Shown in pieces: positions 1,510 through 63,231 of a DNA stretch of 64,000 bases. Origin of the DNA: Alphaproteobacteria bacterium (GTDB taxonomy: Bacteria; Pseudomonadota; Alphaproteobacteria; UBA828); NCBI GenBank assembly GCA_965214705.1, contig CBDCCI010000002.1, positions 2,432,001 to 2,496,000 of the forward strand, in the 5' to 3' direction. Within the stretch, counting starts at the first letter, position 1; each line of letters opens with the position of its first letter. A program made the position numbers and the translations under genes. The notes under the pieces are model-generated. The model had not been told where the DNA came from, searched no databases, and worked only from the letters and a program-made list of their open reading frames with translations.

Positions 1510-1515
1510 GCGCCG

Positions 1516-2594: not shown

Positions 2595-2625
2595 GCCGCT
2601 AACTCCGCGTAGCGGCTTCGTTCAA
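2595..2625. repeat. Element end: small hairpin GCCGCTA/TAGCGGC overlapping a 14-bp inverted repeat (GCGGCTTCGTTCAA; partner at 6-19)
   Basis: Read directly; same structure at 43823-43853 with partner at 41234-41247. Confidence 0.85.
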
Positions 2626-5443: not shown

Positions 5444-5617
5444 ATGGCGGATGAGAAGTTCGAGGTCGGGGACACCGTGCAACTCAAGTCGGGCGGCCCG
5501 CACATGACCGTCGTTACAGCGGCGGAGTATCAGAGGAAGCGGTTGGTCCAGTGCACATGGTTCGTCCATGGCGACAAGCGAGCGGTGGCGACGTTCTCTG
5601 CTGAGTCCCTCCGCTGA
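5444..5617 (+). CDS. YodC/DUF2158 family small protein
   Basis: FEVGDTVQLKSGGPHMTV...VQCTWF...F..ESL signature. Confidence 0.85.
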   Translation: MADEKFEVGDTVQLKSGGPHMTVVTAAEYQRKRLVQCTWFVHGDKRAVATFSAESLR

Positions 5618-5709
5618 TCGGAACGCGCCGAGCCGATAGTGGGCGACGAGGACTGAACTGCAGACGGGAGGCGGTCGACGGTTATCTCACGCGCCGTCCA
5701 CCGACCAGG

Positions 5710-10985: not shown

Positions 10986-13322
10986 TTAGTCCTCTCCGAG
11001 TTTCGGCATGCGGTAGCCGACGCCGCGAACGTTGAATATCCAGGTCGGGTTCGCCGCGTCCTCACCGAGCTTGGCGCGGAGTTTCTTGACGAAGTTGCGC
11101 ACCAGGTCGAGGTCGCCCGCCTCGCGCCCGCTCCAGACCTTGCGTAGCAGGGCTTCGTAGGTCACCACCCGTCCGGCGTCGAGCGAGAGCACGCGCAGAA
11201 GCTCGTACTCGGTCGCGGTCAACTCGACCTCGCGCCCGGCCACCGTCACTCGGCGCTCCTCGTGGTGGATGGCGAGCGCGCCGAGCTCGAAGGGCTCAGG
11301 CCGAGCGACGCGGCGAAGGGCCGCGCCAACCCGGGCGGTGAGCTCGGTCGGCGAGAACGGCTTGACGATGTAGTCGGCGGCGCCCGCCTGCAGGGCTTCC
11401 GCGATGGTCTCGTCGCGGCCGTAGCCCGAGATAAAAACCACCGGCAGATCGGCGAGCTCCGGGACGTTTGCCATCAGCTCGATGCCGTCGGTGCCCGGCA
11501 GCATCAAGTCGAGCAGGACCAAGCGGGGATTCTCGGTACGGATGATCTGCGAGAGCTCCGTATGCTCGCCGGTCACCACCACGGTGTACCCGGCCTTGGC
11601 GAGGGCTTCGCGCGCGATGCGCAGCGTATGCGGGTCGTCGTCGACGACCAGGATGCGGGCGGCCTCGGGCGGTTCCGAGCTCGGGCGCCGGCCGGCGGAC
11701 CTGCTCTGCGCGACATCCTTCGCCACTGGTAAGGTAAAGGTGAACCGGGCGCCTTGGCCGATACCGCCGCTCTCGGCGCGGATGCGGCCCCCGTGCGCCT
11801 CCACCAGCCCCTTGCAGATGACGAGCCCGAGGCCTGTGCCCGTGATCGCCCGAGCGCCGCCGGCGCCCCCGTACTTGCGGAACAGGTGGGGCAGAAACTT
11901 GGGCGCCACGCCCCTTCCCTCGTCCGAGACAGAGACCGCGACGTGGACGCTGTCGCGTTCGGCCGAGACCCGGATAGGGGCGGACTCCGGCGAGTGCCGT
12001 GCCGCGTTGGCGAGCAGGTTGTTCAGCACCTGTACGATGCGTCGGCGGTCGGCCATCACCGGCGGCAGGTCCGGCGGCAGGTCGATGTGCACGGTGTGCC
12101 GGGCACCGCCGGACAGGAACGTGTTCCGCGCCCGGTCGACCAGCGCGGCCACCTCGGACGGTTCGGGGGCGACCGAGAGCGTGCCCGCCTCGATGCGTCC
12201 CGCATCGAGCAGGTCGCCGATCAGGCCGCGCATGTGCGCTGCCTGATCGTGGATGATACGGTAGAACTCGTGGCGTTCGGCCGGGTCGAGCTCGGCCGAC
12301 TCTTCGAGCAGGGTGAAGGCGGAGCCCGTGATCGAGGTGAGCGGGGTGCGCAGCTCGTGACTCACCAGGCCGAGGAACTCGGCGCGAAGCCGCTCCAGCT
12401 CCTGCAGCGGCGCCAGATCCTGCATTGTGACCACCATCGAGGCGACCTCGCCGTCGTCGGAACGGATCGGGGTCGCGTTGAGGAGCACGGTGACGCTGCG
12501 ACCGTCCGGAACCGATAGCTCGACCTCCTCGCCGCGCACCGTCTCGCCGATGCTCAGCGCCTCCACGATGGGGAACTCGCTGAGCGATACCTCGCGGCCG
12601 TCGCCGCGACGGAAGTACATTATGTCTAGCAGCTCCTCCACCGGGCGGTCCGCCATGCGCAGATGTTCGGCGAGGCGCCGCGCCTCGCGGTTGAACGACA
12701 CCGGACGGCCGGATCGGGCATCGAACACCACGACGCCGACCGGCGAGGTCTCGACCAGGGCTTCGAGGTCCGCCCGCGCGCGGCGCTCGTCGCGGTGGGT
12801 GCGGGCGTTGGCGATCGCGGCCGCCGCCTGCGAGGCGAACAGCGCCATTACCTCCTCGTCCTCGTCGGTGAACTCTGGTCCCGTCTCCTTCTCGCCGAGG
12901 AAGAAGTTGCCGACCTGCGCGCCGCGGTGGCGCATCGGCGTGCCCTGGAAGGTGTTGATGATCACCCCGTCGGTGGAAAAGCCGAGCGCGCCGACATGGG
13001 CGGGCATGTCGGCCACCCGCAGCGGCGAGGGCAGATCGCGCAGCACCTCGAAGACCCGCAGGTTGTCCGTCCACTCCACCACCTGACGTTTCTCCTCGGG
13101 CGTGAAGCCGGAGAGGACGGCGTCCTCGAGCCGCCCGGCGTCGTCGATGGTGGTGATGACGGCGTAGCGGGCGCCGGTCAGCGCGCGGGCGGTTTCAGCG
13201 ATCTCGTGAAGCACCGTGTCGAGGTCGAGGCTCGTGCTGATGCGCAAGAAGGCCGCGGTGAGTGCGGAGATCCGTTCGCGCAGGGTCTCGATCTGCCGCG
13301 CCGGTTCGGTCGGCTCGCTCAA
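10986..13322 (-). CDS. Soluble hybrid regulator GAF-PAS-HisKA-HATPase-REC-wHTH (paralog 2)
   Basis: Same motif set, collinear with paralog 1; TTG start behind GAGGAG inferred from alignment. Confidence 0.9.
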   Translation of the reverse strand: MSEPTEPARQIETLRERISALTAAFLRISTSLDLDTVLHEIAETARALTGARYAVITTIDDAGRLEDAVLSGFTPEEKRQVVEWTDNLRVFEVLRDLPSPLRVADMPAHVGALGFSTDGVIINTFQGTPMRHRGAQVGNFFLGEKETGPEFTDEDEEVMALFASQAAAAIANARTHRDERRARADLEALVETSPVGVVVFDARSGRPVSFNREARRLAEHLRMADRPVEELLDIMYFRRGDGREVSLSEFPIVEALSIGETVRGEEVELSVPDGRSVTVLLNATPIRSDDGEVASMVVTMQDLAPLQELERLRAEFLGLVSHELRTPLTSITGSAFTLLEESAELDPAERHEFYRIIHDQAAHMRGLIGDLLDAGRIEAGTLSVAPEPSEVAALVDRARNTFLSGGARHTVHIDLPPDLPPVMADRRRIVQVLNNLLANAARHSPESAPIRVSAERDSVHVAVSVSDEGRGVAPKFLPHLFRKYGGAGGARAITGTGLGLVICKGLVEAHGGRIRAESGGIGQGARFTFTLPVAKDVAQSRSAGRRPSSEPPEAARILVVDDDPHTLRIAREALAKAGYTVVVTGEHTELSQIIRTENPRLVLLDLMLPGTDGIELMANVPELADLPVVFISGYGRDETIAEALQAGAADYIVKPFSPTELTARVGAALRRVARPEPFELGALAIHHEERRVTVAGREVELTATEYELLRVLSLDAGRVVTYEALLRKVWSGREAGDLDLVRNFVKKLRAKLGEDAANPTWIFNVRGVGYRMPKLGED

Positions 13323-13860
13323 CGGGTTCTCCTCCCCGGATACGGCCTGGATTGACCTTCGATCGCCCAGCGCCGGCGTGCCGCGGCACAGGACAGTCAG
13401 GACCCTAGGGTGCCGACGATCCGGCCGGATCGTAAACGATCCAGTCAAATAATTACAGAAAAGACATCGTATTAATCAAATTAGGTACGAAGAAATCATT
13501 TAAAGCCTTTCAAATGCTGGTTTTGCCCGCGGTTCGGCGACGCTCGGAGAACGGAGAAGATGACCGGGCGGTTCGCAATGACGAGCGCGGTACGGAACCG
13601 TTCCGGGCATTGTCGACGGCGATGGCTGCCGCGCGTGCCTGCGCACCAGTTCAGCAACTAGCCGAAAGCGAGAGTTGTCGGGTCGCCAAGCTTGAGAGAC
13701 TTTCGATCGCCTCCGAAAAGGTAAGGGACTGGTGATCCGGTCGTTCATCCGCGTCGTCGGTCCGCTCCCGCAACACCGGACTGATCAATGGCAGCGGACT
13801 TGTGTTTCGATCGACCTGATCTACCTCAACGTGTCCCTAGACACTTACGGATCGCGCACT

Positions 13861-32652: not shown

Positions 32653-32745
32653 GGCGGCACGCAGGCGGGGCCGCAGATTTCGGTCGCGGTCCCGCCTGCA
32701 CTTTTCCCTGGTCATGCATTGGCGAATCGGATTAAGGGGTGGCCC

Positions 32746-34461
32746 ATGCCGAAGGTCACGCCCTCACCCCTCAGCAGCGCCGGTTCGCCGTCGCCTGCGG
32801 TGGTTTCGGCGGCGCTGGCGGCCCTGCATGCGGAGCTTGACGACGAGCGCGCGGCGCGCCGGGCGACGGAAGCAGCCCTATGCGAAGCGGAGCAGGCACG
32901 CGGCGCGGCGGAGGCGGCGAGGCAGACGGCGGAAGCGCGGGCGGCACGGCTGGAGGCCGAGAACGCGCAGAGCGCGGAGCAGATCAGCCGGCTTGAGCAT
33001 CTCAACAAGGAGCTCAGGAAGGCGCTGTTCGGTCCGCGCTCCGAGAAGCTCGGCGAGGACGAGCGCCAGCTTACGTTCGAGGAGTTTTGGGCGGCGATCG
33101 CTGAAGCCGGCGGTCGGCCCGAGGCAGATGACCAGGAGCAGGACGAGGGGGCTGGCGGCAAGCGCCGGCGGCGCTCTTCCCGGGGGTCGCGCAGCGGGGT
33201 GCGCTTCGGGCCCCAGGTCGACCGGCGCGAGGAGGTGATCGAGCCGGACACGATCATGTGCCCCTGCGGCTGCGGCGAGATGACGAAGATCGGCGAGGAC
33301 CGCAGCGAGCGGCTGGACTATGAGCCGGCGAAGTTCACCGTCATCGAGACCGTGCGCCCCCGCTACGCCTGCAACAAGTGCAAGGGGGGCGGGGTGGTGC
33401 AGTCGCCGGCGCCGGCCGCTCTGGTCGAGGGCGGCCTTCCCACCGAGGCTCTTCTGGCGCAGGTGCTGATCGCGAAGTACGGCGATCATTGCCCGCTCTA
33501 TCGCCAGTCGCAGATCTACGAGCGCTCGGGGATCGAGGTTCACCGTGCGACGCTGGCGACGTGGGTGGGCCAGGCGTCGTTTCACCTGCGCCCCGTGGTC
33601 GCTTGCCTGGAGGATGAGCTGAAGAAGTCGGATCACCTGGGTCTGGACGAGACCACGATCCGCGTTCTCGACCCGGGCCGGGGCAAGACGAAGACGGGCT
33701 ACATGTGGACCCTTGTGCGTGACGAGCGCCACTGGAGCGGCACGGACCCGCCGGGCGTCGTCTATCGCTATGCGCCCGGCCGCGGCGGCAAGTATGGCGC
33801 CGAGCTTATGGAGGGCTTTTCGGGGACGGTGCAGCTCGACGGCTACTCGGGCCACAACATCCTGGCGCGGCCGGACCGGGCGGAAGGCCCTGTGACGCGG
33901 GCCCTCTGTTGGGCGCATGTAAGACGGAAGCTGAAAGAGGTATACGACTCGAGCGCATCGCCGATCGCGCTGGCCGGTCTGAATCGGATCGCGAAGCTCT
34001 ATGCGATCGAGAAGAAGATCCGGGGCAAGCCGCCGGCGGAGCGCCGCGCGATCCGTTGGGAGGAGTCGGCGCCGATCGTGAACACCTTCGGTGTCTGGCT
34101 CGACGAGCAGCGCTCGCGCGTCTCACCGCGCTCGCGTCTCGGCGAGAAGCTGACCTATATCGCCAACCAGTGGGACGGGCTGCTGGAGTTCCTGCACGAC
34201 GGTCGTGTCGAGATCGACTCGAACCTGGTGGAAAACCGAATCCGGCCGCTGAAGCTCACCGCCAAGAACGCGCTCTTCGCCGGCAACGACGAGGGTGCGC
34301 AAGCCTGGGCCCGCATCGCCTCGCTGATCGAGACCTGCAAGATGAACGGCGTCGAGCCCTACGCCTGGATGCGGAGCACGCTCGAGAAGATCGCCAAGGG
34401 CCACCCGCAGTCGGGCATCCAGGAGCTTCTGCCGTGGAACTTCCAGCCCGAGGCAAAATGA
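32746..34461 (+). CDS. tnpC: IS66 transposase TnpC
   Basis: Coiled coil, FGPRSEK, CPCGC, PLYRQ, LDETT, CWAHVRRK, IDSNLVENRIR, ELLPWN. Confidence 0.93.
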   Translation: MPKVTPSPLSSAGSPSPAVVSAALAALHAELDDERAARRATEAALCEAEQARGAAEAARQTAEARAARLEAENAQSAEQISRLEHLNKELRKALFGPRSEKLGEDERQLTFEEFWAAIAEAGGRPEADDQEQDEGAGGKRRRRSSRGSRSGVRFGPQVDRREEVIEPDTIMCPCGCGEMTKIGEDRSERLDYEPAKFTVIETVRPRYACNKCKGGGVVQSPAPAALVEGGLPTEALLAQVLIAKYGDHCPLYRQSQIYERSGIEVHRATLATWVGQASFHLRPVVACLEDELKKSDHLGLDETTIRVLDPGRGKTKTGYMWTLVRDERHWSGTDPPGVVYRYAPGRGGKYGAELMEGFSGTVQLDGYSGHNILARPDRAEGPVTRALCWAHVRRKLKEVYDSSASPIALAGLNRIAKLYAIEKKIRGKPPAERRAIRWEESAPIVNTFGVWLDEQRSRVSPRSRLGEKLTYIANQWDGLLEFLHDGRVEIDSNLVENRIRPLKLTAKNALFAGNDEGAQAWARIASLIETCKMNGVEPYAWMRSTLEKIAKGHPQSGIQELLPWNFQPEAK

Positions 34462-34541
34462 CTCGCGCGCTCACGGCGCTCCTCAAGAAATCCCCGTCGT
34501 AGTCAAGCCAGATTCCGGTATGGGGTCTGCGTACCGCTTAC

Positions 34542-36872
34542 GCCAGAAGTGCGCGCAAGGGCCCGACGTCCAGGGCCACACGCAGGTTGTTCTCCACGAG
34601 CATGCCTTCCGGAAGAGACGCGGCCGCCAAGCGCACCGCCCGCTCGGCCGTGGAAACGGAGGCGACCTCACCGCTTAGCGCCACCCCCCGCGCAACCCGC
34701 TGCACCTGCACCCCGTCCAGCCCCGGCTCATCGGCCATGAGAGAGCGCAGCGGCCCAAGGTCCAGCCCAACCTCAAGGTTGTCCTCGACCAGCATCTCCT
34801 CGGGGATGGAGGCAGCGGCGAGGCCGACAGCGCGCTCCGCCGCCTCTGCCGATCCGACCGCTCCGGTAAGTGCCACGCCGCGTGCCAGCCGCTGAACGCG
34901 CACATCCCGAAGGTCGGGGTCCATGGCCAGAAGTGCGCGCAAGGGACCGATGTCCAGAGCCACCCGCAGGTTGTTCTCGACCGAGATGTTTTCCGGGAGC
35001 GAGGCGGCCGCAAGCCGCACCGCCCGGTCGGCCGTGGCGACGGAGGCGACCTCGCCACTCAGGGCCACGCCCCGTGCAACCCGCTGCACCTGCACCCCGT
35101 CCAGCCCCGGCTCTCCCGCCATGAGCGAGCGTAGCGGCCCGAGGTCCAGCCCAACCTCAAGGTTGTCCTCGACCAGCATCCCCTCGGGGATGGAGGCAGC
35201 GGCGAGGCCGACAGCGCGCTCCGCCGCCTCTGCAAACCCGACCGCTCCGGTAAGCGCCACGCCGCGTGCCAGCCGCTGAACGCGCACATCCCGCAGGTCG
35301 GGGTCCATGGCCAGAAGTGCGCGCAAGGGACCGACGTCCAGGGCCACCCGCAGGTTATTCTCGACCGGCATGTCCTCCGGAAGAGAGGCGGCCGTTAGGC
35401 GGACCGCCCGATCGGCGGTGGCGACGGACGCGACCTCGCCACTCAGCGCCACCCCCCGCGCAACCCGCTGCACCTGCACCCCGTCCAGCCCCGGCTCATC
35501 GGCCATGAGAGAGCGCAGCGGCCCGAGGTCCAGCCCCACCTCAAGGTTGTCCTCGACCAGCATGCCCTCCGGAATGGAGGCAACGGCAAGGCCGACTGCC
35601 CGATCGGCCGCCGCCGGAGAGCCCACCTCGCCACTGAGCGCGACCCCACGTGCCAGCCGCTGAACGCGCACATCCCGAAGGTCGGGGTCCATGGCCAGAA
35701 GTGCACGCAAGGGACCGACGTCCAGGGCCACACGCAGGTTGTTCTGGACCGGCATGCCTTCCGGAAGAGACGCGGCCGCAAGACGCACCGCCCGATCGAC
35801 AGTGGCGACGGAGGCGACCTCGCCGCTCAGGGCCACACCCCGCGCAACACGCTGCACCTGAACCCCACCCAGCCCCGCCTCGCCCGCCATGAGCGCGCGC
35901 AGCGGCCCGAGGTCCAGCCCCACCTCAAGGTTGTCCTCCACCAACATCCCTTCCGGGATAGAAGCCACCGCGAGCCCAACCGCACGCTCGGCCGCCGCCG
36001 AAGAGCCCACCTCGCCACTGAGAGCGATCCCGCGCGCCAGTCGCTGCACGCGCACATCCCGCAGGTCGGGGTCCACGGCCAGAAGTGCGCGCAAGGAACC
36101 GACGTCCAGGGCCACACGCAGGTTGTTCTCCACGAGCATGCCTTCCGGAAGAGACGCGGCCGCAAGGCGCACCGCGCGCTCGGCCGTGGCGACGGAGGCG
36201 ACCTCGCCGCTCAGGGCCACACCCCGCGCAACCCGCTGTACCTGTACTCCGTCCAACCCTGGCTCACCCGCCATGAGCGAGCGCAGCGGCTCGAGGTCCA
36301 GCCCCACCTCAAGGTTGTCCTCCACCAGCATCCCCTCGGGGATGGAGGCAACGGCAAGACCGACCGCACGCTCGGCCGCCGCCGGAGAGCCCACCTCGCC
36401 ACTCAGAGCGACCCCGCGCGCCAGCCGCTGCACCTGCACGCCCTGCAGATCCGGATCGGCGGCCAGAAGTGCGCGTAGCGGTGCGACATCGAGAGCCACC
36501 CGCAGACTGTTCTCGACCGGCATGCCTTCCGGAAGAGAGGCGGCCGCAAGGCGCACCGCCCGATCGGCGGTGTCGACGGACGCGACCTCGCCGCTCAGAG
36601 CCACCCCCCGCGCAACCCGCTGCACCTGCACCCCGTCCAGCCCCGGCTCTCCGGCAAGGAGCGAACGCAGCGGCCCGAGGTCCAACCCAACCTCAAGGTT
36701 GTTCTCCACCAGCATCCCCTCGGGGATGGAGGCAACGGCAAGGCCGACCGCACGCTCGGCCGCCGCCGGAGAGCCCACCTCGCCACCGAGAGCTACCCCG
36801 CGCGCCAGCCGCTGAACGCGCACGTCGCGCAGATCCGGATCTGCGGCCAGCAGTGCACGCAAGGGCCCGACG
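34542..36872 (-). repeat. 192-bp (64-aa) tandem repeat, 12 full units alternating A/B (384-bp higher-order period)
   Basis: Type A (DPDLRDVRVQRLARG...SIPE...LEVGLD) alternates with type B (EPGLDGVQVQRVARG...SLPE...LRVALD). Confidence 0.95.
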
Positions 36873-39238
36873 TCGATCACCACGAGAACATCCCGCTCCA
36901 GAACGGAGCCATCCTCGCCAAGCACGGAAATCGACGTGCTGCCCGCCGTCTGACCTAGGACGTACAGCACAGTGGGAGAGAGAAGCTGCACGTCTGCGAT
37001 CTCGGGGGAAGCAGCCGCCACTGCCTTTGCGGGACTGTCGAGATGCCACCGACGACTCTTTCCCAGCACGACAATCCACTCGTCATGGGGGAGCGCATCA
37101 CCTGGAGGATACTCAGGCGGCTGGGACTCCAAATTGGGTAGATCTTCCGCGGACGCTAGCGATAGCGAGGGAGCGGCGGAATAGGGCGCGGCACCGCCGG
37201 TCCAGGCATGTGCTGTCGGCCGTTCGTTCGGACTCATCCCCGACGGCGTGGAAGCAAAGGAAGCGAAAGGCGTATCGGAAGTCCGAACTCGATCAGGGGC
37301 GGGTTCTGCGAGGGCCACACTCTCGTACCACCCCGCCTGGCGCTCTCCTTCACCGTTGAGCCGTCCAGGCCCATCCTCAGGCAGTAACGCGGCGGTCAGG
37401 AGAGCTGCGTCCGATTCGGAGGTTGGATCGGACGCGAACGCAGTCGCGCTCGACGTGGACGAGGCGCGGTCGGGTGAAAATGCCGGCTGCAGGAACGCTC
37501 CTTCGGACCATGAAACGAGACCGAGGTTGGCAGCCGAGAGAGTCATGTTCCTGGGCCACGCGGCTCCTTGTTCCCAAACGTGGCCGCGCGACGAAGGTGT
37601 AGCTCCGGAATAGAATGCGTCTACCAAGGATGCCGCGCCGGCTCTGCGCGCGAATTCGGACGCCGTCGCGTTCGTGCCTGACTGCAGCATCGTGAGGTCG
37701 AGCAAGAAGATGGACTGCAGGAATGTCGCATGTGACAAGGAGACGTGACCGAAATCGGCAGCACCGAAGATCAGTCGTTGGGACAACGCGGCTCCCGGCT
37801 CCCACCAGCCGTTAGGCGGCGCGGATGAGCGGCTGGAAGTGGACGGGACGGGACGGGATGGCGCATGTCCTTCGGTCATTGACTGGGACGCCGCAGGCGT
37901 CGCTCTTCGCGTCAACCTGATGGGATTGGACGGAAGAGCAGGATGATCGAATGATGCATCCGACAAGGTGTCGACGTTGAAGTCGGCAGCCGCCACGGTC
38001 GCTCTCTCCAACCATGCAGAATCCGGCTCCTGCATGCCGCTCATCAATAAGGGTGCAACACCGGTAGAGGACGGGTTGGGAACGGGGACCGCGTCGGATT
38101 CGGTCGTTGGTGCCGGCGCCGACGCTGTCGCGGCGGTCGGCGTTGTGGCGTCTGCGGTCGAAAGGAACAGGGGAGTCGGAGACCCCTCGGGCGGCGCGGT
38201 GAAGTCGGGGTCGGTGGCGCCGGAGACGGCCATGATCGCGGACCGAGCGGCATAAGGATTCGGAACGCCCTGCTGCGATGCAAACGAGGCTTTTGGCGAA
38301 GGCGGGTTCGGGGCGCCCGCCTCCCCGCCCCCGGATGTGGATTGGGGCCGAGGCGCTCCGGCGTAATCGGGAACGGCGAATACTGCGTCCGCCGCGGGAA
38401 GAACGTCCCAGCCAGCCTCGCCGGTGAGGCGGAGCGTCAGCCCCAACGTACCTCCGAGTGCAATACCTGTTGAGGGCCCGAGCCCTTTGCTCGCGATCAA
38501 TGGCGGCGGGTCGAGGGGAGGCCACTCCAGCAGGAGTCTGGTATCGACCCGGCGCGGCGGCATTGACTGTCGGCGGGCAGTGTCCACAAGGTTCTGCAAT
38601 GCGCGTGAGTCGTCTTCCTCCCAGTAGGACGCGTCATATCGTTCGTAGATACCTGCTGCCGCGTCGATCCGACCGGAAGCGATCAGCATACGAACGAAGT
38701 TGGCTGCGATCCGGGGATGTGCCGAGGGATGGCGGAGCGCTTCGGTGTAGTGGGTTTCGGCGGTCTCGTAGTCGGCTTCGAGTACGGCGGCGACGGCGAG
38801 GCCGTTTTCGATCCACATGACTGACGAGGGATCTTGTACGAGCGCTCGCGCATCCAGCAGGTGTTGACGCGCCGCTTGGGTATCGCCGAGAGCGAGCGCC
38901 GTCCGCCCGGCACCGAGGAGCGCCTCTCCCCTGGTAGCGGGTGAGGCCTGCGCCAGGTCCGCAGCCTGGAGAAACTGTCGGCGCGCCGCGTTGAAGTCAT
39001 GGTCGTGCAGGAAGATGTAGCCCAGTCCCAGGACAGGTTCAGGCGCATCGTCGAATCGCTCTGCAAGCGAAAGGTAGAGCCTCCGGGCAACGGCCGGCTG
39101 TCCCGCCGCGAGCGCGGCGGAAGCGACGGACAGATGGTCTCGAAGCAGCTCCCTGGCGCCGGGCCTGTCGGCCGGCTCGGAGACGCCGGAGCAGGCGGCG
39201 ACAAAAATAAGCGTGGCAAGCGCGGCGGTTGCGGGCAT
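34542..39238 (-). pseudogene. cpaC: N-terminal piece of the giant secretin: lipoprotein signal, TadD-like TPR, long linker, CpaC pilus-N domain, 12+ BON-like repeats
   Basis: Lipobox FVAAC; TPR motifs (PVLGLG, ALLGAG, ENGLAV); LGKSRRWHLDSPAKAVAAASPEIADV...GSTSISV; start codon uncertain. Confidence 0.85.
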
Positions 39239-39362
39239 GCGTCTTGCGGAATTCAAGCGCAATACCGAACTTTTGAATCGGGACGCCAAACTTCGATGAT
39301 GAGCAGTTCGGACGTTCAAAATCTTCGCCTCCCGTGCCCGCGGTGAACCGGCGGCCGGAAAC

Positions 39363-40451
39363 TCAGGCGCAATCCACATGCCGAAACGAATTCGCGGAGA
39401 ATCGTGATCTCCAGGCATCGAACAGGGCATCGCGAGAACCGCTGAAGCGCGCCTGAATGGTCACGTACTCCTGCTGTGTTGTCGTGTTCGCGGCGGATTG
39501 AACGGAATATCCGAGCCTCTTCAGGCTGGTCATCCGCCGCTGCGCATTCGCTCTGCTCCTGTACACACCGAGCGAGACCGCGTTTCTCAGTTCACCTCCG
39601 AGGATGACCGCGACGTCGCGGATTCCCCGGCTCTTGAGTTCGCGCAATGTCCGAAGGGCACTCTTGCGGCTGTCCAAGGGCGGGATGTAGACCCGGTGGC
39701 TCTCGATCGTCTCACGCGGCTCCGCGGCTATCGCGAGAATCTCCGCCCCTCGCGAGCGCAGCCATTGCTTGGCGTCCTCAACGTCGTCGCGAGTCTCGAA
39801 CTCGCCCACCGACACACAGGCGGCATCGGCAACGGCCAAGGCGGCAGTCGGGCTCTGACGCTCTTCGCGTGCGAACCGGTCTGTAGCCCGTGCACCGGCC
39901 TCGCCCATCTCGGGCGCCTCTGAAACGACCGGTTCCGAGGTGCGCGGAATGGATGAGCGGACCGGCTCGCTGCGCTCTCGGACTATGGTCGTGCCGAAGC
40001 CGAGTTCCCGGGCGCGGGCGTAGGCACCGCGCGCCAGCTTCACGTAGATGTCGCCCAGGTTCTGGTATCCGATGGCGTCGGTCTGGCGTTCGAGTGCACC
40101 GAGGAGGACCCCGCGCGCGTCCTCGAGCCGGCCCTCTTGAACGTAGACGACGGCCAAATTGTTGTAGGCCTCGAACAAGTCGGGAAAGTCCCGCACGAGT
40201 GAGCGGAAGGTGTCGATCGCCTCGTCCCGATCTCCCTCGTGCAGGCGTAAGATCCCGTGCAGAAGCCGTGCATGGGAACTGCCGGGCTCTCGCTCAAGCA
40301 GCGGATCAAGGGTGAGACGTGCTTCCCGATAGCGTTCTTCGTCTGCGAGCGAGATCGCGCGGTCGAGCGTGTCCTCGGACAGCGCGGCGTTGGACGAGAG
40401 AGTCGCCGCTGACATCGCCAGCGCCAGCAGGACCGCGCCGATCTTCGTCAT
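39363..40451 (-). CDS. Secreted TPR + SPOR-domain protein
   Basis: Signal peptide; TPR (EAYNNLAVVY, YQNLGDIY); C-terminal NAVSLGVYRSRANAQRR SPOR-like region. Confidence 0.8.
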   Translation of the reverse strand: MTKIGAVLLALAMSAATLSSNAALSEDTLDRAISLADEERYREARLTLDPLLEREPGSSHARLLHGILRLHEGDRDEAIDTFRSLVRDFPDLFEAYNNLAVVYVQEGRLEDARGVLLGALERQTDAIGYQNLGDIYVKLARGAYARARELGFGTTIVRERSEPVRSSIPRTSEPVVSEAPEMGEAGARATDRFAREERQSPTAALAVADAACVSVGEFETRDDVEDAKQWLRSRGAEILAIAAEPRETIESHRVYIPPLDSRKSALRTLRELKSRGIRDVAVILGGELRNAVSLGVYRSRANAQRRMTSLKRLGYSVQSAANTTTQQEYVTIQARFSGSRDALFDAWRSRFSANSFRHVDCA

Positions 40452-41167
40452 GGCCGCCTCCAGTGCTCATCCAAGGCAGTGTTGTCTGCTCGCCGCGGCA
40501 GATCTGCGCGCGTGCGCTGGACCGCCTCATCGACATGCGGCGGACGCGTCTCCCTGGATTGCTGCCCAGTGGGATGGTCGTTCGCTTCACTGCGGTTGCT
40601 GGTACCGGCGATCCAGCCGGCAATGAACTTGTTGGCGATCGCGCGGATCCCTTCGTGAAGGTTCTCTGCAACCAAAGCGACCCGGGCAATCTCCTCAGGG
40701 TCTCGAGGGTCCGGTGCCTCGGCGGTGGAGGGCCATCCGGCTGCATTCCGCGCTGCGGATCCGACGCTCTTGAAGGCGTCCGAAATCATCGACGCCTCTT
40801 CCAATGCAGTCGGCATCGGCTTGTCGTATGCGCGTCTGACGCGGTCGAGCGTGAGTTCCAGCCTGCGAGCCGCTTCCAGCGTCTCGCGTTCGTTCTCCGA
40901 GAACTCACTGCCTTCGGCTTCTCCCTTGTCCAGGATCCAGCTGCTCTCCTTTCCGGCGTTCTGCAGCTCGTTGTGTGCTCTCCGAGCGTCCAGCGAATAG
41001 GTGAGACCCAGACGAACCTGCTGGATCAAGCCGAGGGGCGTAAGATGACCGACGGCACCGGTCTCGATTTCGATGGCGCGGTATCCCACCTCTCCTTCTT
41101 CTTCGTGTTGGAGGCGGATACTCTTCGTGCGCGTTCCCTCACTCGTCTGGGCGCCTGCGTCCGTCAG
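40448..41167 (-). pseudogene. 3' part of an interrupted ~652-aa hypothetical gene
   Basis: Open frame from 41167 (LTDAGAQ...VGYRAIE) to a stop overlapping the next ATG; joins 43852-45090 in frame. Confidence 0.8.
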
Positions 41168-41247
41168 AAAAGGTTAAGGGTTGAAAAGGTTAAGGGTTGG
41201 GCAGGCTCTCTCTCGAGAGCCTGCCCAACCCTTTTGAACGAAGCCGC
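41168..41247. repeat. Element downstream end: 2x AAAAGGTTAAGGGTTG, perfect 19-bp hairpin (41192-41233), 14-bp IR (41234-41247)
   Basis: AAGGGTTGGGCAGGCTCTC-TCTC-GAGAGCCTGCCCAACCCTT read directly. Confidence 0.92.
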
Positions 41248-41495
41248 GGGCCACGAGAGGCGAAGTTGAGCTATGTGGAAAGTGCGCTGATGTCAGCGTC
41301 AGGCGGCATCCACCGGCAGCAGAGTTGCGCATAAAATCGACGCTCGCGCCGGTCTTTCGGCAGGCATGCGGGCGCACGCTGCGAGGACTGAGCGGGGTGT
41401 GAGCCGAGGGCTGTCAGCCCGGCTCAAGCGGAGACAGGTTCGGTCGTGCGTCGGCGCTTTGGCGCCGTTGCGCGGGGCCGAAGCGAGCGGGCGTC

Positions 41496-42737
41496 TCACG
41501 GTTTCCCCCTGTGGGTCGGCGGCAGCGCCGGCGGGCCGCGCGTCGAGCGGGGCTCATGGCGGCGGCGGATTTCGCGGACGAGGCGCATGACGCCGCCGCA
41601 GTGGGGGCAGGCCACGGGCGCGGTGCCGATCTCGGGCTCTTCGTCGGGCTCGGCCCGAGCGCCGTCCACGCTTCCCTCGGGGGCGGCGCAGCCGAGGGCG
41701 CCGAGAGCCTGGCGTGCTCTCTCCAGCGTGCTGGCGCGGCAGCCGTTGGCGAGGATGCCGAAGTAGCGAATGCGGTGCATGCCGTCCGGCAGGACGTGCC
41801 TCAGGAAGCGGCGGATGAACTCGTCGGCGCTCACGGTGGCGATGCCGTAGCGCGGCTTTCTCTGCCCCGGCGCCTTGGGCTTTCGGTGGCGGAAGGAGAC
41901 CGTCTCGCCGTCGAAGGAGACGATGCGGCTGTCGGAGATGGCGATCCTGTGCGTGTAGTGCGAGAGGTACCGGAAGACCTGCTCAGGCCCGCGGAAGGGC
42001 CGCTTGGCGTAGACCACCCAGTCCCTGGCCCGGGCGGCGGCAAGCGTGGCGTGGAACTCGCCGGGATTGGCGAGGTGGGCGAGGGTGCCGTGGAACTCCA
42101 GGTCCCCCCGGCCGTGGGCGCGGGCGAGCTCCTCGAGGAAGAGGCGGCGGAACAGGCTGCCGAGGACCTTGACGGGGGCGAGGAAGGTGGTGCTCCCCGT
42201 CTTCCACTCGCCACTGTCTACGTCGAAGCCCGCGTTGGGCACGACCACGTGCAGGTGCGGGTGGAAGCGGAGCTTCTGATCCCAGGTATGGAGGACCGCG
42301 GTGCCGCCGATGCGCATGCCGCCGTGGCGGGGATCGGCGGCGATGGTGCGCAGGGTCTCGGCGACGGCCCGGAAGAGGATGTCGAACACCACCCTGCGGT
42401 TGCAGAAGGCAATGGCGGCAACCTCCTTGGGCAGGGTGAAGACCACATGGAAGTAGGGCACCGGCAGGATGTCCCCGGCGCGCTCCTCGCTCCAGAGGTT
42501 GGCGGCGAGACCCTGGCAGGTGGGGCAGTGGCGGTTGCGGCAGGAGTTGAAGAGCGGATGCTCGCGCCCGCAGCCCTCGCAGGCGTACATGTGGCCGCCG
42601 AGCACGGCGGTGCGGCACGCCTCGATGGCGCCCATGACCTTGAGCCGGGCGGCGTCGATGCGCCCTTTGTGGCGCTCACGGAAAGCGGCGCCGGCGCGGC
42701 GGAAGATCTCCGCCACGCCCGCGCGTTCGGCCTCCAC
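41496..42737 (-). CDS. IS91-family HUH transposase (copy 2)
   Basis: Two amino-acid differences from 268-1509. Confidence 0.92.
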   Translation of the reverse strand: MEAERAGVAEIFRRAGAAFRERHKGRIDAARLKVMGAIEACRTAVLGGHMYACEGCGREHPLFNSCRNRHCPTCQGLAANLWSEERAGDILPVPYFHVVFTLPKEVAAIAFCNRRVVFDILFRAVAETLRTIAADPRHGGMRIGGTAVLHTWDQKLRFHPHLHVVVPNAGFDVDSGEWKTGSTTFLAPVKVLGSLFRRLFLEELARAHGRGDLEFHGTLAHLANPGEFHATLAAARARDWVVYAKRPFRGPEQVFRYLSHYTHRIAISDSRIVSFDGETVSFRHRKPKAPGQRKPRYGIATVSADEFIRRFLRHVLPDGMHRIRYFGILANGCRASTLERARQALGALGCAAPEGSVDGARAEPDEEPEIGTAPVACPHCGGVMRLVREIRRRHEPRSTRGPPALPPTHRGKP

Positions 42738-42743
42738 GCGCCG

Positions 42744-43622
42744 TCAGTTGCGCAACGCTGCGAAGCCTGAGATCGGGTGGTCGAGGCCCTCGAACATCTT
42801 GCCGGTGACGCGGGCGTAGTGACGGGTCGTGTTCGCGCTTCGATGGCCGAGCATGTCCCGGATCACCTCGATATCGCCGCCGCGCTCGAGGAGATGGGTC
42901 GCCGCCGAATGGCGCAGGCAATGGAAGGTGTAGCTGCGGTCGAGCTCGGCAATGTCGCGCGCCCTCCTGAAGGCGGCCTGCAAGGTCTCCGTTGCGATGG
43001 GCCTGTCGAGCGAGACGCCGTAGAAGAGCCAGCTCGTCGGACGCGGCCAGATGTTCCTGTAGTAGACGCGCAAGTAGTGGATGACGATGTCCGGCAACGG
43101 TGCCATTCTCTCGGTGCCGCCTTTGCCGGAGGGGATGTGCAGCAGCTTCTTCTCCGACAGGATGTCGCCGACCTTGATGGCCAAGGTCTCGGAGATGCGG
43201 AGCCCGCCGCCATAGCCGGTGACAATGGCAGCACGGTGGCGGAGGTCGGGTGTCGCAAGGATGAGGTGCTCGACCTCCTGCTCCGACATGTAGCGCGGCA
43301 GCTTGCCGGGCTTCTTGCGGGAGCGCAGGCCGGCGACATGGTCAGGCCAGCCGAGTGTGTCGATGTAGAGGAAGTTCAGCGCGGCGAAGGAGACGTTGGT
43401 CGTGCCCGGACTGAGCCCCTTGTCGATCCGCCCCAGGTACCACTGGCGCACCTGCTCGGCGTCGAGCTCGTCCGGCGAGGCGTCGTAGTACCTGGCCAGG
43501 TTCTTGATCTCGCAGATGTAGGCCTTGGACGTGCTCGCGGCCAGATTGGCGATGCGGAGCTGCTCCTCCATGCGCTGGCGAAGAGGGGTGACGGTGTTCG
43601 TGTCGCACGCGGTCCCGGTCAT
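42744..43622 (-). CDS. Tyrosine recombinase (copy 2)
   Basis: Same protein as 1516-2394. Confidence 0.92.
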   Translation of the reverse strand: MTGTACDTNTVTPLRQRMEEQLRIANLAASTSKAYICEIKNLARYYDASPDELDAEQVRQWYLGRIDKGLSPGTTNVSFAALNFLYIDTLGWPDHVAGLRSRKKPGKLPRYMSEQEVEHLILATPDLRHRAAIVTGYGGGLRISETLAIKVGDILSEKKLLHIPSGKGGTERMAPLPDIVIHYLRVYYRNIWPRPTSWLFYGVSLDRPIATETLQAAFRRARDIAELDRSYTFHCLRHSAATHLLERGGDIEVIRDMLGHRSANTTRHYARVTGKMFEGLDHPISGFAALRN

Positions 43623-43851
43623 TATCGATCTCCCTGGATCGCGACGGCGCGCCGCCGGACCGATCCGGCGACGGTCCGTCGCAGGGGTCGATACTAACCA
43701 CTGGTGATCGGGAGGCTGCTGGGGATCCGCCACCCGACGGGCGGAGCGCCACTGACGCAACCGGGAAGCGAACGCACAGAACAAACGGCACCCGCGACGC
43801 CTCGGAAATGAATGAACTCTACGCCGCTAACTCCGCGTAGCGGCTTCGTTC

Positions 43852-45090
43852 AAATGCGGATGCCAGTTCTTCGAGCCAGCGGGGGGCGCGCTGCTTCGCC
43901 ATGACGGTGCTGATTTCGGCGCCGAGCGCATCGGCATCGTCGGCGCCGCGCAGGCGCGACAGCGCCTGGGTGAATCCGATGCCGTAGGACTCCCTCATCC
44001 GCCGCCGCACGGCGTCGGAGATACGGTTGGCAGCGACCTTGAGCTCGGTCAGTTCGTTGTCCCGAACGAGCGCGTCGGGACGGGTGAATTGCAGAGTGCC
44101 GGTGTCCTCGTTCGCAGCCCGGATGCGCGCCTCAAGCGCGTAGAAGTCTGCTGGGGACGCCTCCGCGCTCCTCGCCTCGGGCTCCGGGACGGTCGCCGTT
44201 CGGGTGCCGGCGGGCTTCTTTGCAGCATTCTCCGGAACACTCTCTTCCTGTTCTTCTTCGACGACGACGATCTCGGCGTGTTCGGCCAGGGCCCGCAGCC
44301 AGCGGATTTCATTGGGATCGAAGGCGTGCAGGCGATAGCTGGTCGCGGGCGTGTAGTAGCGCCGCAGCGGCGCACGCACGCCGCGTCCAGCTCGCAGGCG
44401 GATCGCGCTGAGCGACGCGCGCGTCTTCAAGCTCTGCCCGTTCCAGGCCCGCTCGAGCGCGTTTGCCACGCCTGCAGTCGTGCGGCGCTCCCGCACGTCT
44501 TCGAAATGGGATTGGAGATGCTCGAAGATCCTGACGGCGCAGAGGACCACAAGGCTCGATTCCGCGCCGGCCGCCGCCTTGTGCCTCTCGCCGGCCTGGG
44601 TCCAGCGCTCGGCGGTTTCGTGCACCGTCGTCGCCAACTCGAGAGCGAGGATCACGTATCCGGCAACCGACTCGGGACGAATGCCGACATGAAGCTCGCC
44701 CTTCGAGCCGTTCCATACGCGGTAGCACTCGCCTTCCGCCGCGACGGCTACGCTTCGACTCCAGGCGCCCGCAGAGACGACATTCTCAGCACCGGCAGCG
44801 AGGTCGGAGGCCGCGATCCCGACATCTCCGATCAGCCGGTTCCCGAGGACTTCGACAGGCTCAGGCAGGCGTCGGTGCGCACGGGCCGCTTCGCCGAGCA
44901 TGGCCCCCGTCTCCGGACGCTCGAGCGCGGTCCAATCGAGCGGCGCGTCTGCGTCGAGCCTGTCTCTGACCGCATTCGGGAGCGCCTTCACGGCGCGGGT
45001 GAACAGTTTGTCGGTATTCACACTGAGACTCCTTGCGACTGGTATGGAAAGCTCCGACTGGGAAGGTCCAGGGTCCCGCCTTTCTGTCAT
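43852..45090 (-). pseudogene. 5' part of an interrupted ~652-aa hypothetical gene in the Tad operon
   Basis: 413 open codons; the apparent tail ERSRYAELAA derives from the element. Confidence 0.8.
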
Positions 45091-58928: not shown

Positions 58929-59541
58929 CCACGTCCCTCGTTTAGCATCTCGACACACACATCGCCAAGTTGAGGCATGTGCGCTGCGGGGATTATCGAG
59001 CGTGCAACATTGATCTGAAGCGTTCGGATACCTTCGCGTTGAAGACACCCGGAGGTGGGGGCTACGGGCCATGTTGAAATGCCGTGTGGCGCGTCCCGAG
59101 GGCTTCCGACGCGGCGCGCAGCGCCGGAGATACTCGTCCGCGAACTCCGCCACCCATGCTGAGAAACCGAAGAATAAGGGGTCAAGCGAATCATCGCTTC
59201 TTCTGTGACCGGTTCCAAGAACCAGTTTGTGAGTCCGGTTCAAGCGGCATTATCGGTCGCGCCGACGCGTTCGCGGTTTTCACCGACCTCTGCGGCGCGC
59301 TTCAAGCGACCCTGTCTGCGCATTATTAGCGATTCGGAGCAGCAACCTCTTCATCCACAAATCACAATCTAGACATGACTTTGTGAATATAACGTGTCCT
59401 GTTGAAAACAATTTGTGCTTTTATCGTGCCTCCGCTGCCAGAGAGCGTTACTCTATTACCCTGCGCGCCCGGCTTCGGCCGGCGCTCCTGCACCGTCGCC
59501 CATGCGCGCCGGCGTCTGTCCCATTCCGCACGGATACGCCA

Positions 59542-61894
59542 ATGAACGGTCCCGAAGAGAGAGACCGTGAACTCCAAGCGCTCAGGGATCGCATCTCTGC
59601 GCTCAGCGCGGCCACCCTGCGGATCAGCGCGAGCCTCGACCTCGCCACAGTACTGCAAGAGGTCGTCGACAGTGCGCGCGCGCTCACTGGTGCGCGCTAC
59701 GGCGTCATCGCGACCGTCGACGACACGGGTGAGGTGCAAGATTTCGTCTCTTCCAGCTTCTCACCGGAGGAGCACGACCAACTCGCCGAGTGGGCCGACG
59801 GACCACGCCTCTTCGAGCACTTGCGGAACCTGCCCGGACCGTTGCAAGTCGGAGACCTGCACCATTACGTGCGCTCCCTCGGCTTTTCCCCGGACCTGAT
59901 GGTCTCAAGCACCTTGCAGGGCGTGCCGATGCACCACCGCGGTGTGCAGGTCGGCAACTTCTTCCTTGCCGGGAAGGGGGGCGGCGTAGAGTTCACCAGT
60001 GAGGACGAGGAGGTCTTGGTCCTGTTCGCTTCGCAGGCGGCGACTGCCATCGCGAACGCCCGCGCCCACCGCAAAGAGCAACGCGCCCGGGCCGACCTGG
60101 AGGCCCTCATCGACACCTCGCCGGTGGGTGTCGTGGTTTTCGACGCCCAAACCGGAAAGCCAGTGTCCTCCAACCGGGAGGCCAATCGAATCATCGAGCC
60201 CCTTCGCATCCCGGGCCGCCCCGCAGAAGAGCTGCTCGAGGTGCTGAGCTTCCGGTTTGCCCACGGGCGCGAGGTCGCGCTTGACCGCTTCTCGCTTGCG
60301 CAGGAGCTGAAGAACTCGGGGGTGGTGCGCGCGGAGGAAGTCGTGGTCTCGGTGCCCGACGGGCGGAACGTATCGATGCTGGTCAACGGAACGCCGATTC
60401 ATGCCGATGATGGAACGGTGGCGTCGGTGGTCGTCACCATGCAGGACCTTGCGCCGCTCAAGGAGCTTGAGCGGCTGCGCGCGGAGTTCCTGGGCATGGT
60501 AAGCCACGAGCTGCGCGCGCCGCTCACCTCCATCAAGGGCTCGACGGCCGCGGTGCTGGGCGCCGAGCCCGCCCTGCCGCGCGCCGAGCTAATGCAGTTC
60601 TTCCGCATCATCGACGATCAGGCCGACCACATGCAGGGCCTCATCGGCAACCTCCTCGATGCGGGGCGCATCGAGGCGGGGACGCTGTCCGTGGATCCAG
60701 AGCCCTCCGATATCGCCGCGCTTGTGGACCGGGCGAGGAACACCTTTCTGAGCGGCGGCGCCAGACACACGGTCATGATTGACCTGCCGCCCGACCTTCC
60801 GCGAGTGATGGCGGACCGCGAGCGCGTCGTGCAGGTGCTGAACAACCTGCTATCCAACGCGGCCCATCACTCTCCGGAAACCTCCCCCATTCGCGTGGAG
60901 GCGGCGCGCGAAGGGGTGCACGTGGCGGTCGCGGTCTCGGACCAGGGCCAGGGAGTGCCCCCTGAAATGCTGGCGAAGCTCTTTCGCAAGCATGTGGCGC
61001 TTGCCGGCGGCGACGGAGAGGGCGGAATCGGGGCGACAGGGCTCGGGCTTGCAATCTGCAAGGGGCTGGTGGAGGCGCACGGGGGCCGCATCCGCGCCGA
61101 GAGCGCAGGCCTGGGCCAGGGCACAAGGTTTACCTTCACGCTTCCGCTCTGCGACGACGGCGTCGGCGAGGCCCGATCCGGTCAAGCTCGCGCGCGCACC
61201 GCTGGCGTCTTTGGGCAGAAGCCGCGCATCCTCGTCGTCGACGACGACCCGAAGACCCTGCGCTACGTGCGCGACGCGCTTTCCCGGGCGGGCTACGCCA
61301 CGCTGGTCACGGGCGAGCCGGAGGAGCTGGCGAACCTGATTCGCACGGAGAGGCCCAGGCTCGTACTCCTGGATCTCCTGTTGCCGGGCACCGACGGCAT
61401 CGAACTGATGGCGCAGGTCCCGGAGCTCTCCGACCTGCCGGTGATCTTCATCTCGGGTTACGGCCGCGACGAGACGATCGCGCGGGCCTTTGAAAGCGGT
61501 GCCGCCGACTACATTGTCAAACCCTTCTCGCCGACGGAGCTGGTGGCGCGGGTCGGGGCAGCACTGCGAAGCCGTGCCGGCGCCGACCCCTTCGTTCTGG
61601 GAGCACTCGCCATCGACTACGAGCGGCGCAGAGTGACGGTGGAAGGGCGCGTGGTGGCGCTTACCGTTACCGAATACGAGCTGTTGCGCATCCTCTCGGT
61701 CAACGCCGGACAGGTGGTGACCTCCGACTCCCTGCTTCGCCAGGTATGGGGCGCGCGCGCCCGGAGACACCGAGCCCGTGCGCGCCTTTGTCAAGAAGCT
61801 CAGGGCGAAGCTCGGCGACAGCGCGGCGAGCCCCACGTACGTCTTCAACGAGCGGGGCGTCGGCTACCGCATGCCGAAACCCGGGGAGGACTGA
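59542..61894 (+). CDS. Soluble hybrid regulator GAF-PAS-HisKA-HATPase-REC-wHTH (paralog 3), frameshift near 61755
   Basis: Same motifs; wHTH end (VRAFVKKLRAKLG...NERGVGYRMPKPGED*) lies in another frame after a (GC)5 run. Confidence 0.85.
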
Positions 61895-62009
61895 GTACCT
61901 TCCCCTAGCGCCCGATCCCGCGACGGGGGGCCGACTTGGAGCACGCAAGGACGGGGGAGAAGCGATTCGGTCTTGAGGCCGACTCGCGCCACGCGCCGGT
62001 CTGGCGCGC

Positions 62010-62942: not shown

Positions 62943-63231
62943 AACAGAACCGGTATCGATTCGCCGAAAACTTTGTATTTCACAAAGGCGGTGCGCTTCC
63001 GTCTACTCGCACGCATCCCGGCTAGGATCAAGGGGTTGGCGGAGTGCCGGAGCGGATCGAGCATCGGGAACGACACCCGCTGGCGCGGCGCAACCGACAC
63101 AGTTTCGTGGGTCACTAATGGCCGGTGGGAGATCGCTGTCGCCTTTGGCAAACCTGAACGAATCCGCGCCGCAGCGAGGTGCAAGCTGATGGGCTGCGCC
63201 TGCGCCGTCACGAGCCGCGGATGAGCCAAGA

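Follow-up and report, generated by a model that had tools for sequence, protein, structure and literature searches.

How does a rolling-circle insertion sequence (IS) that carries its own tyrosine recombinase mark its two ends, and how far do those ends resemble the ends of eukaryotic Helitron2 elements? These questions are raised by a locus in a 64,000-nucleotide (nt) stretch of DNA from an alphaproteobacterium of the UBA828 lineage (assembly GCA_965214705.1, contig CBDCCI010000002.1, positions 2,432,001 to 2,496,000), which we call the window and whose coordinates are used throughout. An earlier description based on the letters and open reading frames (ORFs), hereafter the sequence-only reading, had proposed a rolling-circle element of this kind, starting at 41168, with Helitron2-like ends and TT targets. 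We find that the DNA at 41170–43853 (minus strand) is probably a complete IS91-family rolling-circle insertion sequence carrying its own tyrosine recombinase gene. It likely belongs to a subgroup of autonomous IS91-family elements in which an Xer/integron-like recombinase gene lies directly upstream of the gene for the HUH-Y2 transposase. The core of the complete element (copy 2 in the window; 2668 bp, 41186–43853, minus strand) reads, from 5′ to 3′, TTGAACGAAGCCGC, recombinase, transposase, GCGGCTTCGTTCAA, hairpin and AACCTT. Its 5′ end is the point at which identity with a second copy (copy 1) stops, 43853, and its 3′ end was set from the reconstructed empty site and an alignment with one family of relatives (family A).

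The recombinase gene (42744–43622, minus strand; ATG at 43622, stop TGA at 42744–42746) encodes 292 amino acids (aa), with Pfam matches to Phage_integrase (6.7e-33) and to Phage_int_SAM_4, a SAM-like N-terminal domain (7e-12). It scored under the NCBIfam cut-offs for XerA, XerC, XerD and the integron integrase, the last with 129.1 bits against a cut-off of 265 (TIGR02249, matched in two pieces with ~54 model positions skipped) and 73.7 against 435 (NF011946). The best matches by sequence among solved structures were the XerC-like protein 4a8e (1.2e-26) and XerD (1a0p, 6.6e-23), together with IntI4 and XerA. The transposase gene (41496–42737, minus strand), whose GTG start lies 4 nt past the recombinase stop, encodes a 413-aa IS91-family HUH-Y2 protein matching Y2_Tnp (2.7e-54) and Zn_Tnp_IS91 (4.3e-30), with no further Pfam domain in its length, and scores 382.5 bits against the NCBIfam equivalog transpos_IS91 (cut-off 125). 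These domain and family-model matches bear out the earlier description of an IS91-type rolling-circle element with its own tyrosine recombinase. In alignments of 44 non-identical sequences per protein, drawn from the window and related loci, the recombinase residues R142, K167, H234, R237, H260 and Y269 were invariant (44/44), as were H159, H161 and H163 (HUH), Y257 and Y261 (YxxxY) and the zinc cysteines of the transposase (44/44), indicating that both proteins have been kept as enzymes.

Read along the minus strand, the locus consists of a 14-mer (43853–43840), a 230-nt leader, the recombinase gene, the transposase gene, ~250 nt of non-coding DNA containing the box TTTCCACATAG, the inverted 14-mer (41247–41234), a 19-bp hairpin (41233–41192), a short tail and a doubled 16-bp unit. 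The 14-mer at the recombinase end, TTGAACGAAGCCGC (43840–43853, minus strand), is terminal, contains GAAC, resembles the terIS of IS91 and covaries in relatives; its subterminal inverted copy, GCGGCTTCGTTCAA (41234–41247, minus strand), is an exact match and is conserved in relatives. Throughout the window, TTGAACGAAGCCGC occurs exactly at 41234–41247 (plus), 43840–43853 (minus), 6–19 (plus) and 2612–2625 (minus). Together with one further match at two mismatches, this compares with an expectation of 0.86 matches when up to two mismatches are allowed, and at least five matches were reached in 0/100 shuffles. The imperfect match, at 63154–63167, lacks a nearby hairpin or partner and looks fortuitous.

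Folding supported a hairpin at each end. Directly after the subterminal repeat starts a perfect 19-bp hairpin with a 4-nt loop (41192–41233, minus strand; arms 41192–41210 and 41215–41233), with a DNA folding energy of −26.3 kcal/mol (z = −6.8; 0/200 shuffles as good). At the other end, a small 5′ hairpin (43813–43852, minus strand) makes use of the terminal repeat, the last five bases of which, GCCGC, enter a 7-bp stem (GCCGCTA/TAGCGGC) within an outer TGAAC/GTTCA stem. Its energy is −9.0 kcal/mol on the minus strand (z = −2.2) and −10.6 on the plus strand (z = −3.8), and it is further backed by covariation in 45 aligned ends (see below). Two features picked out in the sequence-only reading, the small hairpin at the upstream end and the subterminal inverted 14-mer followed by a perfect 19-bp hairpin, were thus confirmed, the former by its 7-bp stem and the latter by coordinates and by folding against shuffles. 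The box TTTCCACATAG (41271–41281, minus strand) is conserved in five families of relatives (A, B, C, E and G) and resembles the IS91 right terminus, AATTCCTATCG, a likeness seen by eye and unscored.

The element has been active recently: the window holds two near-identical copies, each of which disrupts an ORF. Copy 1 (1–2625, minus strand) is truncated by the start of the window, within the hairpin and five bases outside its subterminal repeat, and differs from copy 2 by 3 mismatches in 2620 aligned positions. The sequence shared by the two copies breaks off exactly after ...GTTCAA, at 2625 and 43853. An ORF for an NAD-dependent epimerase (2599–3465, minus strand) covers 27 nt of copy 1, and this extension into the element suggests that copy 1 severed the 3′ end of the gene. 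The leading TT of the element pairs with the AA of the subterminal repeat and therefore belongs to the element. The TT that both insertions had been said to follow is accordingly the element's own rather than a target rule, and the base before it is C for copy 1 and T for copy 2. A megablast search with the element against plasmids returned distant pieces of IS91 transposases only, with no copy and no empty site.

Copy 2 could be delimited by the gene it interrupts, which belongs to a Tad/Flp-pilus-type cluster. An intact homologue of this gene, P0001 (652 aa), shares 96% identity with the N-terminal fragment. The N-terminal part (43854–45090, minus strand) aligns to residues 1–412 of P0001 and the C-terminal part (40448–41169, minus strand) to residues 413–652, with no residue lost or doubled: P0001 reads ...ELAST-F-LTDAG..., and the window fragments give ...ELASA plus T, the element, then TT plus CTG ACG.... 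In this alignment, taking out 41170–43853 restores the interrupted gene exactly. The empty site that we infer reads ...GCAT, followed after the insertion point by TTCTGACGG, so that 2684 nt (41170–43853) would have been inserted within TTT without target duplication. As this site is derived from a protein, the phenylalanine codon could be TTT or TTC, and within TTT the break point is uncertain by as many as 2 bases. For this one reconstructable site, the earlier statement that the complete copy sits within TTT and lacks a target duplication held in the alignment to P0001.

The inserted DNA is slightly longer than the core. Family A relatives terminate in ...CCTTAAGATT, and by alignment the window element should end in ...CCTTAACCTT, at 41186. 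Beyond this point on the minus strand come TTC, AACCCTTAACCTT, TTC and then the flank. Given the inferred empty site, we parse 41170–41185 (minus strand) as a 16-bp tandem duplication of the element/flank junction, made up of the 13-nt tail AACCCTTAACCTT and the 3 nt TTC. The 16-bp unit is indeed present twice (41167–41182 and 41183–41198; 2.1 copies by Tandem Repeats Finder), as the sequence-only reading had it, but it is best read as a junction duplication outside the architecture of the element. The proposed start at 41168 was likewise about right for the inserted DNA, of which the outer 16 bp (41170–41185) would be duplicated tail and flank. Tandem Repeats Finder detected junction-adjacent arrays in just 3/80 sequences (the window, L001 and L023), and the repeat in the window looks like a local event on this evidence. 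The arrays in the other two are a 12-mer in 9.4 copies directly past the tail (L001) and a 20-mer in two copies spanning the 5′ end (L023).

L001, the closest relative, deserves separate mention. Its array is a perfect 12-bp repeat of ATTCGCCCGTGA at 5539–5651, directly after the 3′ tail, and a single near-identical 12-mer lies directly before its 5′ end (2805–2818). This could reflect duplication of a target and its amplification next to the hairpin, or an insertion at the border of a minisatellite. With a 12-bp flank repeat on both sides, L001 suggests that exceptions to the lack of duplication, or special targets, may exist. Taken with the 16-bp duplication in the window and the 20-bp duplication of L023 (2887–2925), its array hints at junctions that are prone to duplication.

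A scan of a genome collection with the transposase confirmed 547 relatives, and the best 79 loci were taken for analysis. The recombinase gene lay directly upstream on the same strand in 74/79 of these. Four of the five others come from contigs that are short or truncated; the fifth, L026, shows no more than a weak match, on the opposite strand. The distance from recombinase stop to transposase start ranged from −4 to 13 nt in 48/48 pairs with full ORFs. The closest relative among the 79 loci has a transposase 78% and a recombinase 65% identical to those of the window, which marks the window element as a distinct element. For five multi-copy families, comprising 23 copies, the ends were set by loss of identity between copies. 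The 5′ end lay at or a few bases before GAACGAA... in all 23 copies, apart from families B and E, where it starts one base inside GAAC and ~25 nt before GAAC, respectively. The 3′ end consisted in 23/23 copies of the inverted repeat, the hairpin and a short tail that follows the pattern CC(C)T[CT]AA[CG] plus 1–5 nt. Copies ending at the 14-bp repeat without the hairpin, which would have argued against the proposed ends, were not found among these 23.

We then asked how the repeats and hairpins vary among 50 non-redundant loci for which both ends were available, using counts that take no account of kinship and a motif scan allowing three mismatches, suited to diverged ends. The terminal 12-mer agreed with the reverse complement of its subterminal partner at 10–12 of 12 positions in 47/50 loci, and position 8 of the repeat, which may be G, C or A, agreed with the partner in 47/50. 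A 3′ hairpin started 1–8 nt past the subterminal repeat in 50/50 loci. Its sequence varies between families, it folds better than shuffles (median z = −3.55; z < −3 in 32/50), and among 17 aligned ends of one type 9/18 predicted pairs showed compensatory changes. The key pair of the 5′ hairpin, in the 45 aligned ends, was CG in 16, AU in 16, GC in 9 and broken in 4. That three alternative states should stay in register across three places would be hard to explain without constraint, relatedness notwithstanding. The Helitron2-like end layout put forward in the sequence-only reading was supported: it follows the definition of Bao and Jurka, save for the distance of the 3′ repeat from the core end (48 nt rather than 20–30), and is conserved, with covariation, in the 50 relatives.

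The target rule fared worse. TT preceded the element at only 1/17 distinct sites from four related multi-copy families, which speaks against the proposed TT target. The [CT]AA[CG] tetranucleotide is located within the conserved tail and not in the flank, and the 3′ flanks (TTCTGA in the window; TTCGAG, TACCAG, GGTGGG, ATTGAA and GTTGAG in family A) never start with GAAC or CAAG. The position of GAAC also differs between types: it forms the terminus in GAACGAAC-type relatives, lies 2 nt inside the end in the window element and family A, and 5–6 nt inside it in two other types. We further compared reconstructed targets with circle junctions, ungapped, against displaced controls, and found no support for targets that resemble the junction (matches of 28: 8.3 vs 6.8 at 11 sites, 7.7 vs 6.9 at 16 and 6.0 vs 7.6 at 2).

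Several flanks nonetheless carry motifs of their own. By eye, and at a handful of sites, the 3′ flanks of the closest relatives resemble the TTGAAC start of the element. At GGATTGAAC-type loci (L039, L040, L048, L054, L055, L057, L068 and L078), TGATTC lies exactly 17–22 nt past the 3′ end in 8/10 distinct sites from several genomes; at four of these sites it pairs with a GAATC just past the end to form a small hairpin with a 9-nt loop. This motif could be a target that is strict and structured, or else it could belong to an outer part of the element that has gone unrecognised. The 5′ flank of the GAACGAACCCGC type (e.g. L051, L053, L066, L073 and L077) reads ...(G/C)ATGTC(C/G)G, 6–8 nt, GGG(T/C)CA, NN and then the element, with CA at −4/−3 in 13/16 distinct sites and GCAGACAT often 3–6 nt past the 3′ end, so that the target looks like a dispersed imperfect palindrome; two copies of this type in one genome have similar, non-identical flanks. 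Two small groups have conserved sequence upstream of the GAAC repeat, namely TTTCACC.CC.AGC..TTGA.CATGC..GGCACA within the 34 nt before the repeat in L038, L075 and L079, and GTTGACAA.A.GGATT in L014, L018 and L039, indicating that the 5′ repeat is not terminal there.

How might such ends work? In IS91, the upstream end is terIS, which has a single palindrome close to where it is cleaved, and the end downstream of tnpA is oriIS; the functional intermediate is a bottom-strand circle, no target duplication is made, the target rule is a tetranucleotide adjoining oriIS, and orf121, upstream of tnpA, improves terIS cleavage (accessible text of Fauconnier et al., 2026; PMC13181058). If the window element behaves like its homologue IS91, its transposase would nick one strand downstream of the transposase gene, at the hairpin end, which would be the equivalent of oriIS. 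The strand displaced by replication would be cut again at the recombinase end, where GAAC/GTTC and the small hairpin would serve as the equivalent of terIS, and would be closed into a single-stranded circle and then inserted. We propose that base-pairing between the terminal 14-mer and its subterminal inverted copy, within the displaced strand, folds the junction into one long stem of 14 + 19 bp, with a 6-nt bulge where the two parts join. The stem would set the termination site beside the transposase-bound origin end; Bao and Jurka proposed this role for the repeats of Helitron2. The recombinase, probably co-translated with the transposase and in the position of IS91 orf121, may act like Orf121 in terIS cleavage; its assignment as an accessory, working at the ends or on intermediates that are circular or dimeric, is the least certain part of this scheme.

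Several observations weigh against the scheme or complicate it. Which strand moves and which end initiates are assigned by homology only. Two double-stranded sites bound by one protein would explain the covariation of the repeats equally well. A GTTC/CTTG-type tetranucleotide, a hallmark of the IS91 family, was not seen in the oriIS-side flank, and the 3′ flanks vary. Between families the 5′ end is offset from GAAC by −1 to +6, and by ~25 nt in family E, and L038, L075 and L079 share a longer conserved 5′ stretch, indicating that the cleavage rule is more complex than cutting after GTTC.

Alternatives differ mainly in what they make of the hairpin end and of the recombinase. There is next to no chance, in our judgement, that the element ends at the 14-bp repeat, with host DNA such as a terminator supplying the hairpin, tail and 16-bp repeat. 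The hairpin is G+C-rich and has a T-run behind it on the plus strand, but copy 1 shares the five bases before the repeat, excising 41170–43853 restores the interrupted gene, and the hairpin and tail fall inside the repeated unit in all 23 copies of the five families, which contradicts this reading. More serious, although we hold it to be the less probable case, is a resolvase-type accessory role, in which the recombinase resolves double-stranded circles, tandem dimers and co-integrates that arise by read-through and takes no part in cutting or joining the target, as the sequence-only reading had suggested for circular or multimeric intermediates. Substrates for it would arise, as IS91-type termination fails in 1–14% of events (PMC13181058, accessible text). 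The Xer-type proteins 4a8e and 1a0p are the best structural relatives by sequence, and the recombinase and transposase genes are tightly coupled. Against this, no Xer-type core site (inverted arms with a 6–8 bp spacer) was seen by eye in the ends, where no dedicated search was made; the 14-bp repeats would stand ~55–90 bp apart across the junction; and the present data fail to separate this role from other accessory roles.

A division of labour between the two enzymes, in which the transposase copies out a single-stranded circle and an integron-like recombinase integrates its folded junction in the manner of IntI and attC, strikes us as unlikely. It draws on the placement of IS91-linked recombinases in an integron-like subgroup (Smyshlyaev et al., 2019, bioRxiv 10.1101/542381, in the portion available), on the invariance of all catalytic residues, which points to selection as an enzyme, and on a repeat-hairpin-repeat junction able to fold into a long imperfect hairpin. 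Such recombination would leave no target duplication, as observed, and the family-specific flank motifs at fixed distances in some relatives would suit a recombinase that reads sequence. It is countered by the sub-threshold, two-piece matches to the integron integrase models, by the absence of the IntI-specific insertion from IS91-linked recombinases in the same portion of that preprint, by the integration of canonical IS91 with TnpA alone (PMC13181058, accessible text), and by targets that match junctions no better than displaced controls do (7.7 vs 6.9, 16 sites; 8.3 vs 6.8, 11 sites). That the junction of a single-stranded circle folds through repeats and hairpin into an attC-like stem on which the integron-like recombinase acts, in integration or in precise closure, is an idea to which we give little credence. 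If true, recombinase-carrying IS91 elements would link integron-type and rolling-circle-type DNA mobility, and the Helitron2-type layout would be an old solution to rolling-circle termination, common to bacterial and eukaryotic elements. We continue to favour IS91-type transposition in which paired repeats would bring the two ends together and the recombinase would be an accessory.

The rest of the window holds features unrelated to this question. An IS66-family transposase ORF (DDE_Tnp_IS66, 1.1e-96; 32719–34461, plus strand), between BON-domain genes of the pilus/secretion cluster, is a second insertion sequence, unrelated to the IS91-type element. A 1630-aa ORF (34538–39430, minus strand) matches the BON domain repeatedly, has a pilus-formation region at its N terminus and adjoins secretin and Tad-type ATPase and platform genes. 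Three paralogous hybrid proteins with GAF, histidine kinase, receiver and winged-helix output domains are encoded at 8324–10705 (plus), 10986–13448 (minus) and 59383–61908 (plus).

To place the element among known systems, we compared it with canonical IS91 (orf121 plus tnpA), whose family also includes IS801 and IS1294, on E. coli plasmid NZ_CP122834.1 (L082), taking the ends of this one copy from megablast. Both elements have an HUH-Y2 transposase with an N-terminal zinc-binding domain, insert without target duplication and have unlike ends, with a small hairpin upstream and palindromic DNA downstream of tnpA. The window transposase is 23% identical to that of IS91 and 27–28% identical to other enterobacterial IS91-family transposases. 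The left end of IS91, CGAGTAGGCAGCC-TGGC-GGCTGC..., contains a small hairpin (GCAGCC-TGGC-GGCTGC) a few bases from the terminus, as does that of the window element. An ORF abuts tnpA upstream in both, the 121-aa orf121, which overlaps tnpA, in IS91 and the 292-aa tyrosine recombinase in the window. A TTCC..AT.G box lies near the downstream end of both. In IS91 the right end, ...AATTCCTATCGAT, places this box at the very terminus, abutting GAAC, which fits the published oriIS rule, whereas in the window element the box is internal, followed by ~25–35 nt, the inverted repeat, the hairpin and the tail, and then by a flank without GAAC or CAAG. An inverted copy of the IS91 left terminus near the right end was not found among the 25 longest of 107 inverted pairs in the one copy. 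Subterminal palindromes at unlike ends, characteristic of IS91-type elements, are thus present and conserved, with origin and terminator roles assigned by homology only. The recombinase-carrying subgroup appears to share the IS91 plan, with a downstream end that is extended and differently organised.

Tyrosine recombinases in IS91 elements are themselves already known, in print and as RefSeq gene pairs. ISMno23, ISAzo26 and ISWz1 (ISfinder/TnPedia) are IS91-family elements with an upstream tyrosine recombinase. On RefSeq plasmid NZ_CP041223.1, a 'tyrosine-type recombinase/integrase' is annotated next to an 'IS91 family transposase'. The recombinases 'found in IS91 and IS3 transposons' have been placed in an integron-like subgroup, and those linked to IS91 lack the insertion specific to IntI (Smyshlyaev et al., 2019, bioRxiv 10.1101/542381, available portion). 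In the text available from the papers concerned, ISWz1 is named as an IS91-family element in two and ISMno24 in one, and one of them describes the tandem of genes. One recent IS91 paper contains 0 occurrences of 'integrase' or 'recombinase', and of the four IS91-family elements shown to transpose none is described with a recombinase in the accessible text of PMC13181058. Within the literature searched, which did not reach ISfinder/TnPedia or subscription journals, we found no description of the conserved asymmetric-repeat end layout and no comparison of IS91-type ends with Helitron2. The recombinase shares its catalytic residues and a SAM-like N-terminal domain with IntI and Xer, with all NCBIfam scores under cut-off, and the attC, attI and dif context of the integron and Xer systems is absent at the window element. 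Recombinase-carrying IS91 relatives are common in Alphaproteobacteria (74 of the best 79 loci of 547 relatives), and the ends defined here allow exact delimitation of elements that are now annotated as two unrelated genes.

The closest likeness in end layout is to Helitron2. In the accessible text of Bao and Jurka (2013; PMC3627910), Helitron2 ends carry 8–15 bp inverted repeats. The 5′ repeat, at 0–2 bp from the end, also takes part in a 5′ hairpin, and the 3′ repeat, at 20–30 bp from the end, directly precedes a hairpin; compensatory mutations keep these features, and pairing of the repeats was suggested to mark the end point of replication. Set against this description, the window element has 14-bp asymmetric repeats, of which the 5′ one, 0 bp from the end, contributes to a 5′ hairpin, while the subterminal 3′ one directly precedes the 3′ hairpin (1–8 nt by fold in relatives). 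Compensatory changes keep its repeats and hairpins, no target duplication is made, and the window copy sits in a T-run (T/TT). The two differ in that the 3′ repeat of the window element lies 48 nt from the core end rather than 20–30, that relatives lack the TT or T-rich targeting of Helitron2 (TT at 1/17 sites), and that the host is bacterial and the transposase has no helicase domain, unlike the Helitron2 RepHel protein with its Rep and Pif1-like helicase; the likeness is therefore one of architecture and not of membership. Polarity points the same way: going by its homologue IS91, the element would have its origin at the hairpin end, on the bottom strand, whereas in the Helitron model the hairpin end is where termination occurs. 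The covarying ends offer concrete sites to mutate in a bacterial test system for the role proposed for the asymmetric repeats of Helitron2.

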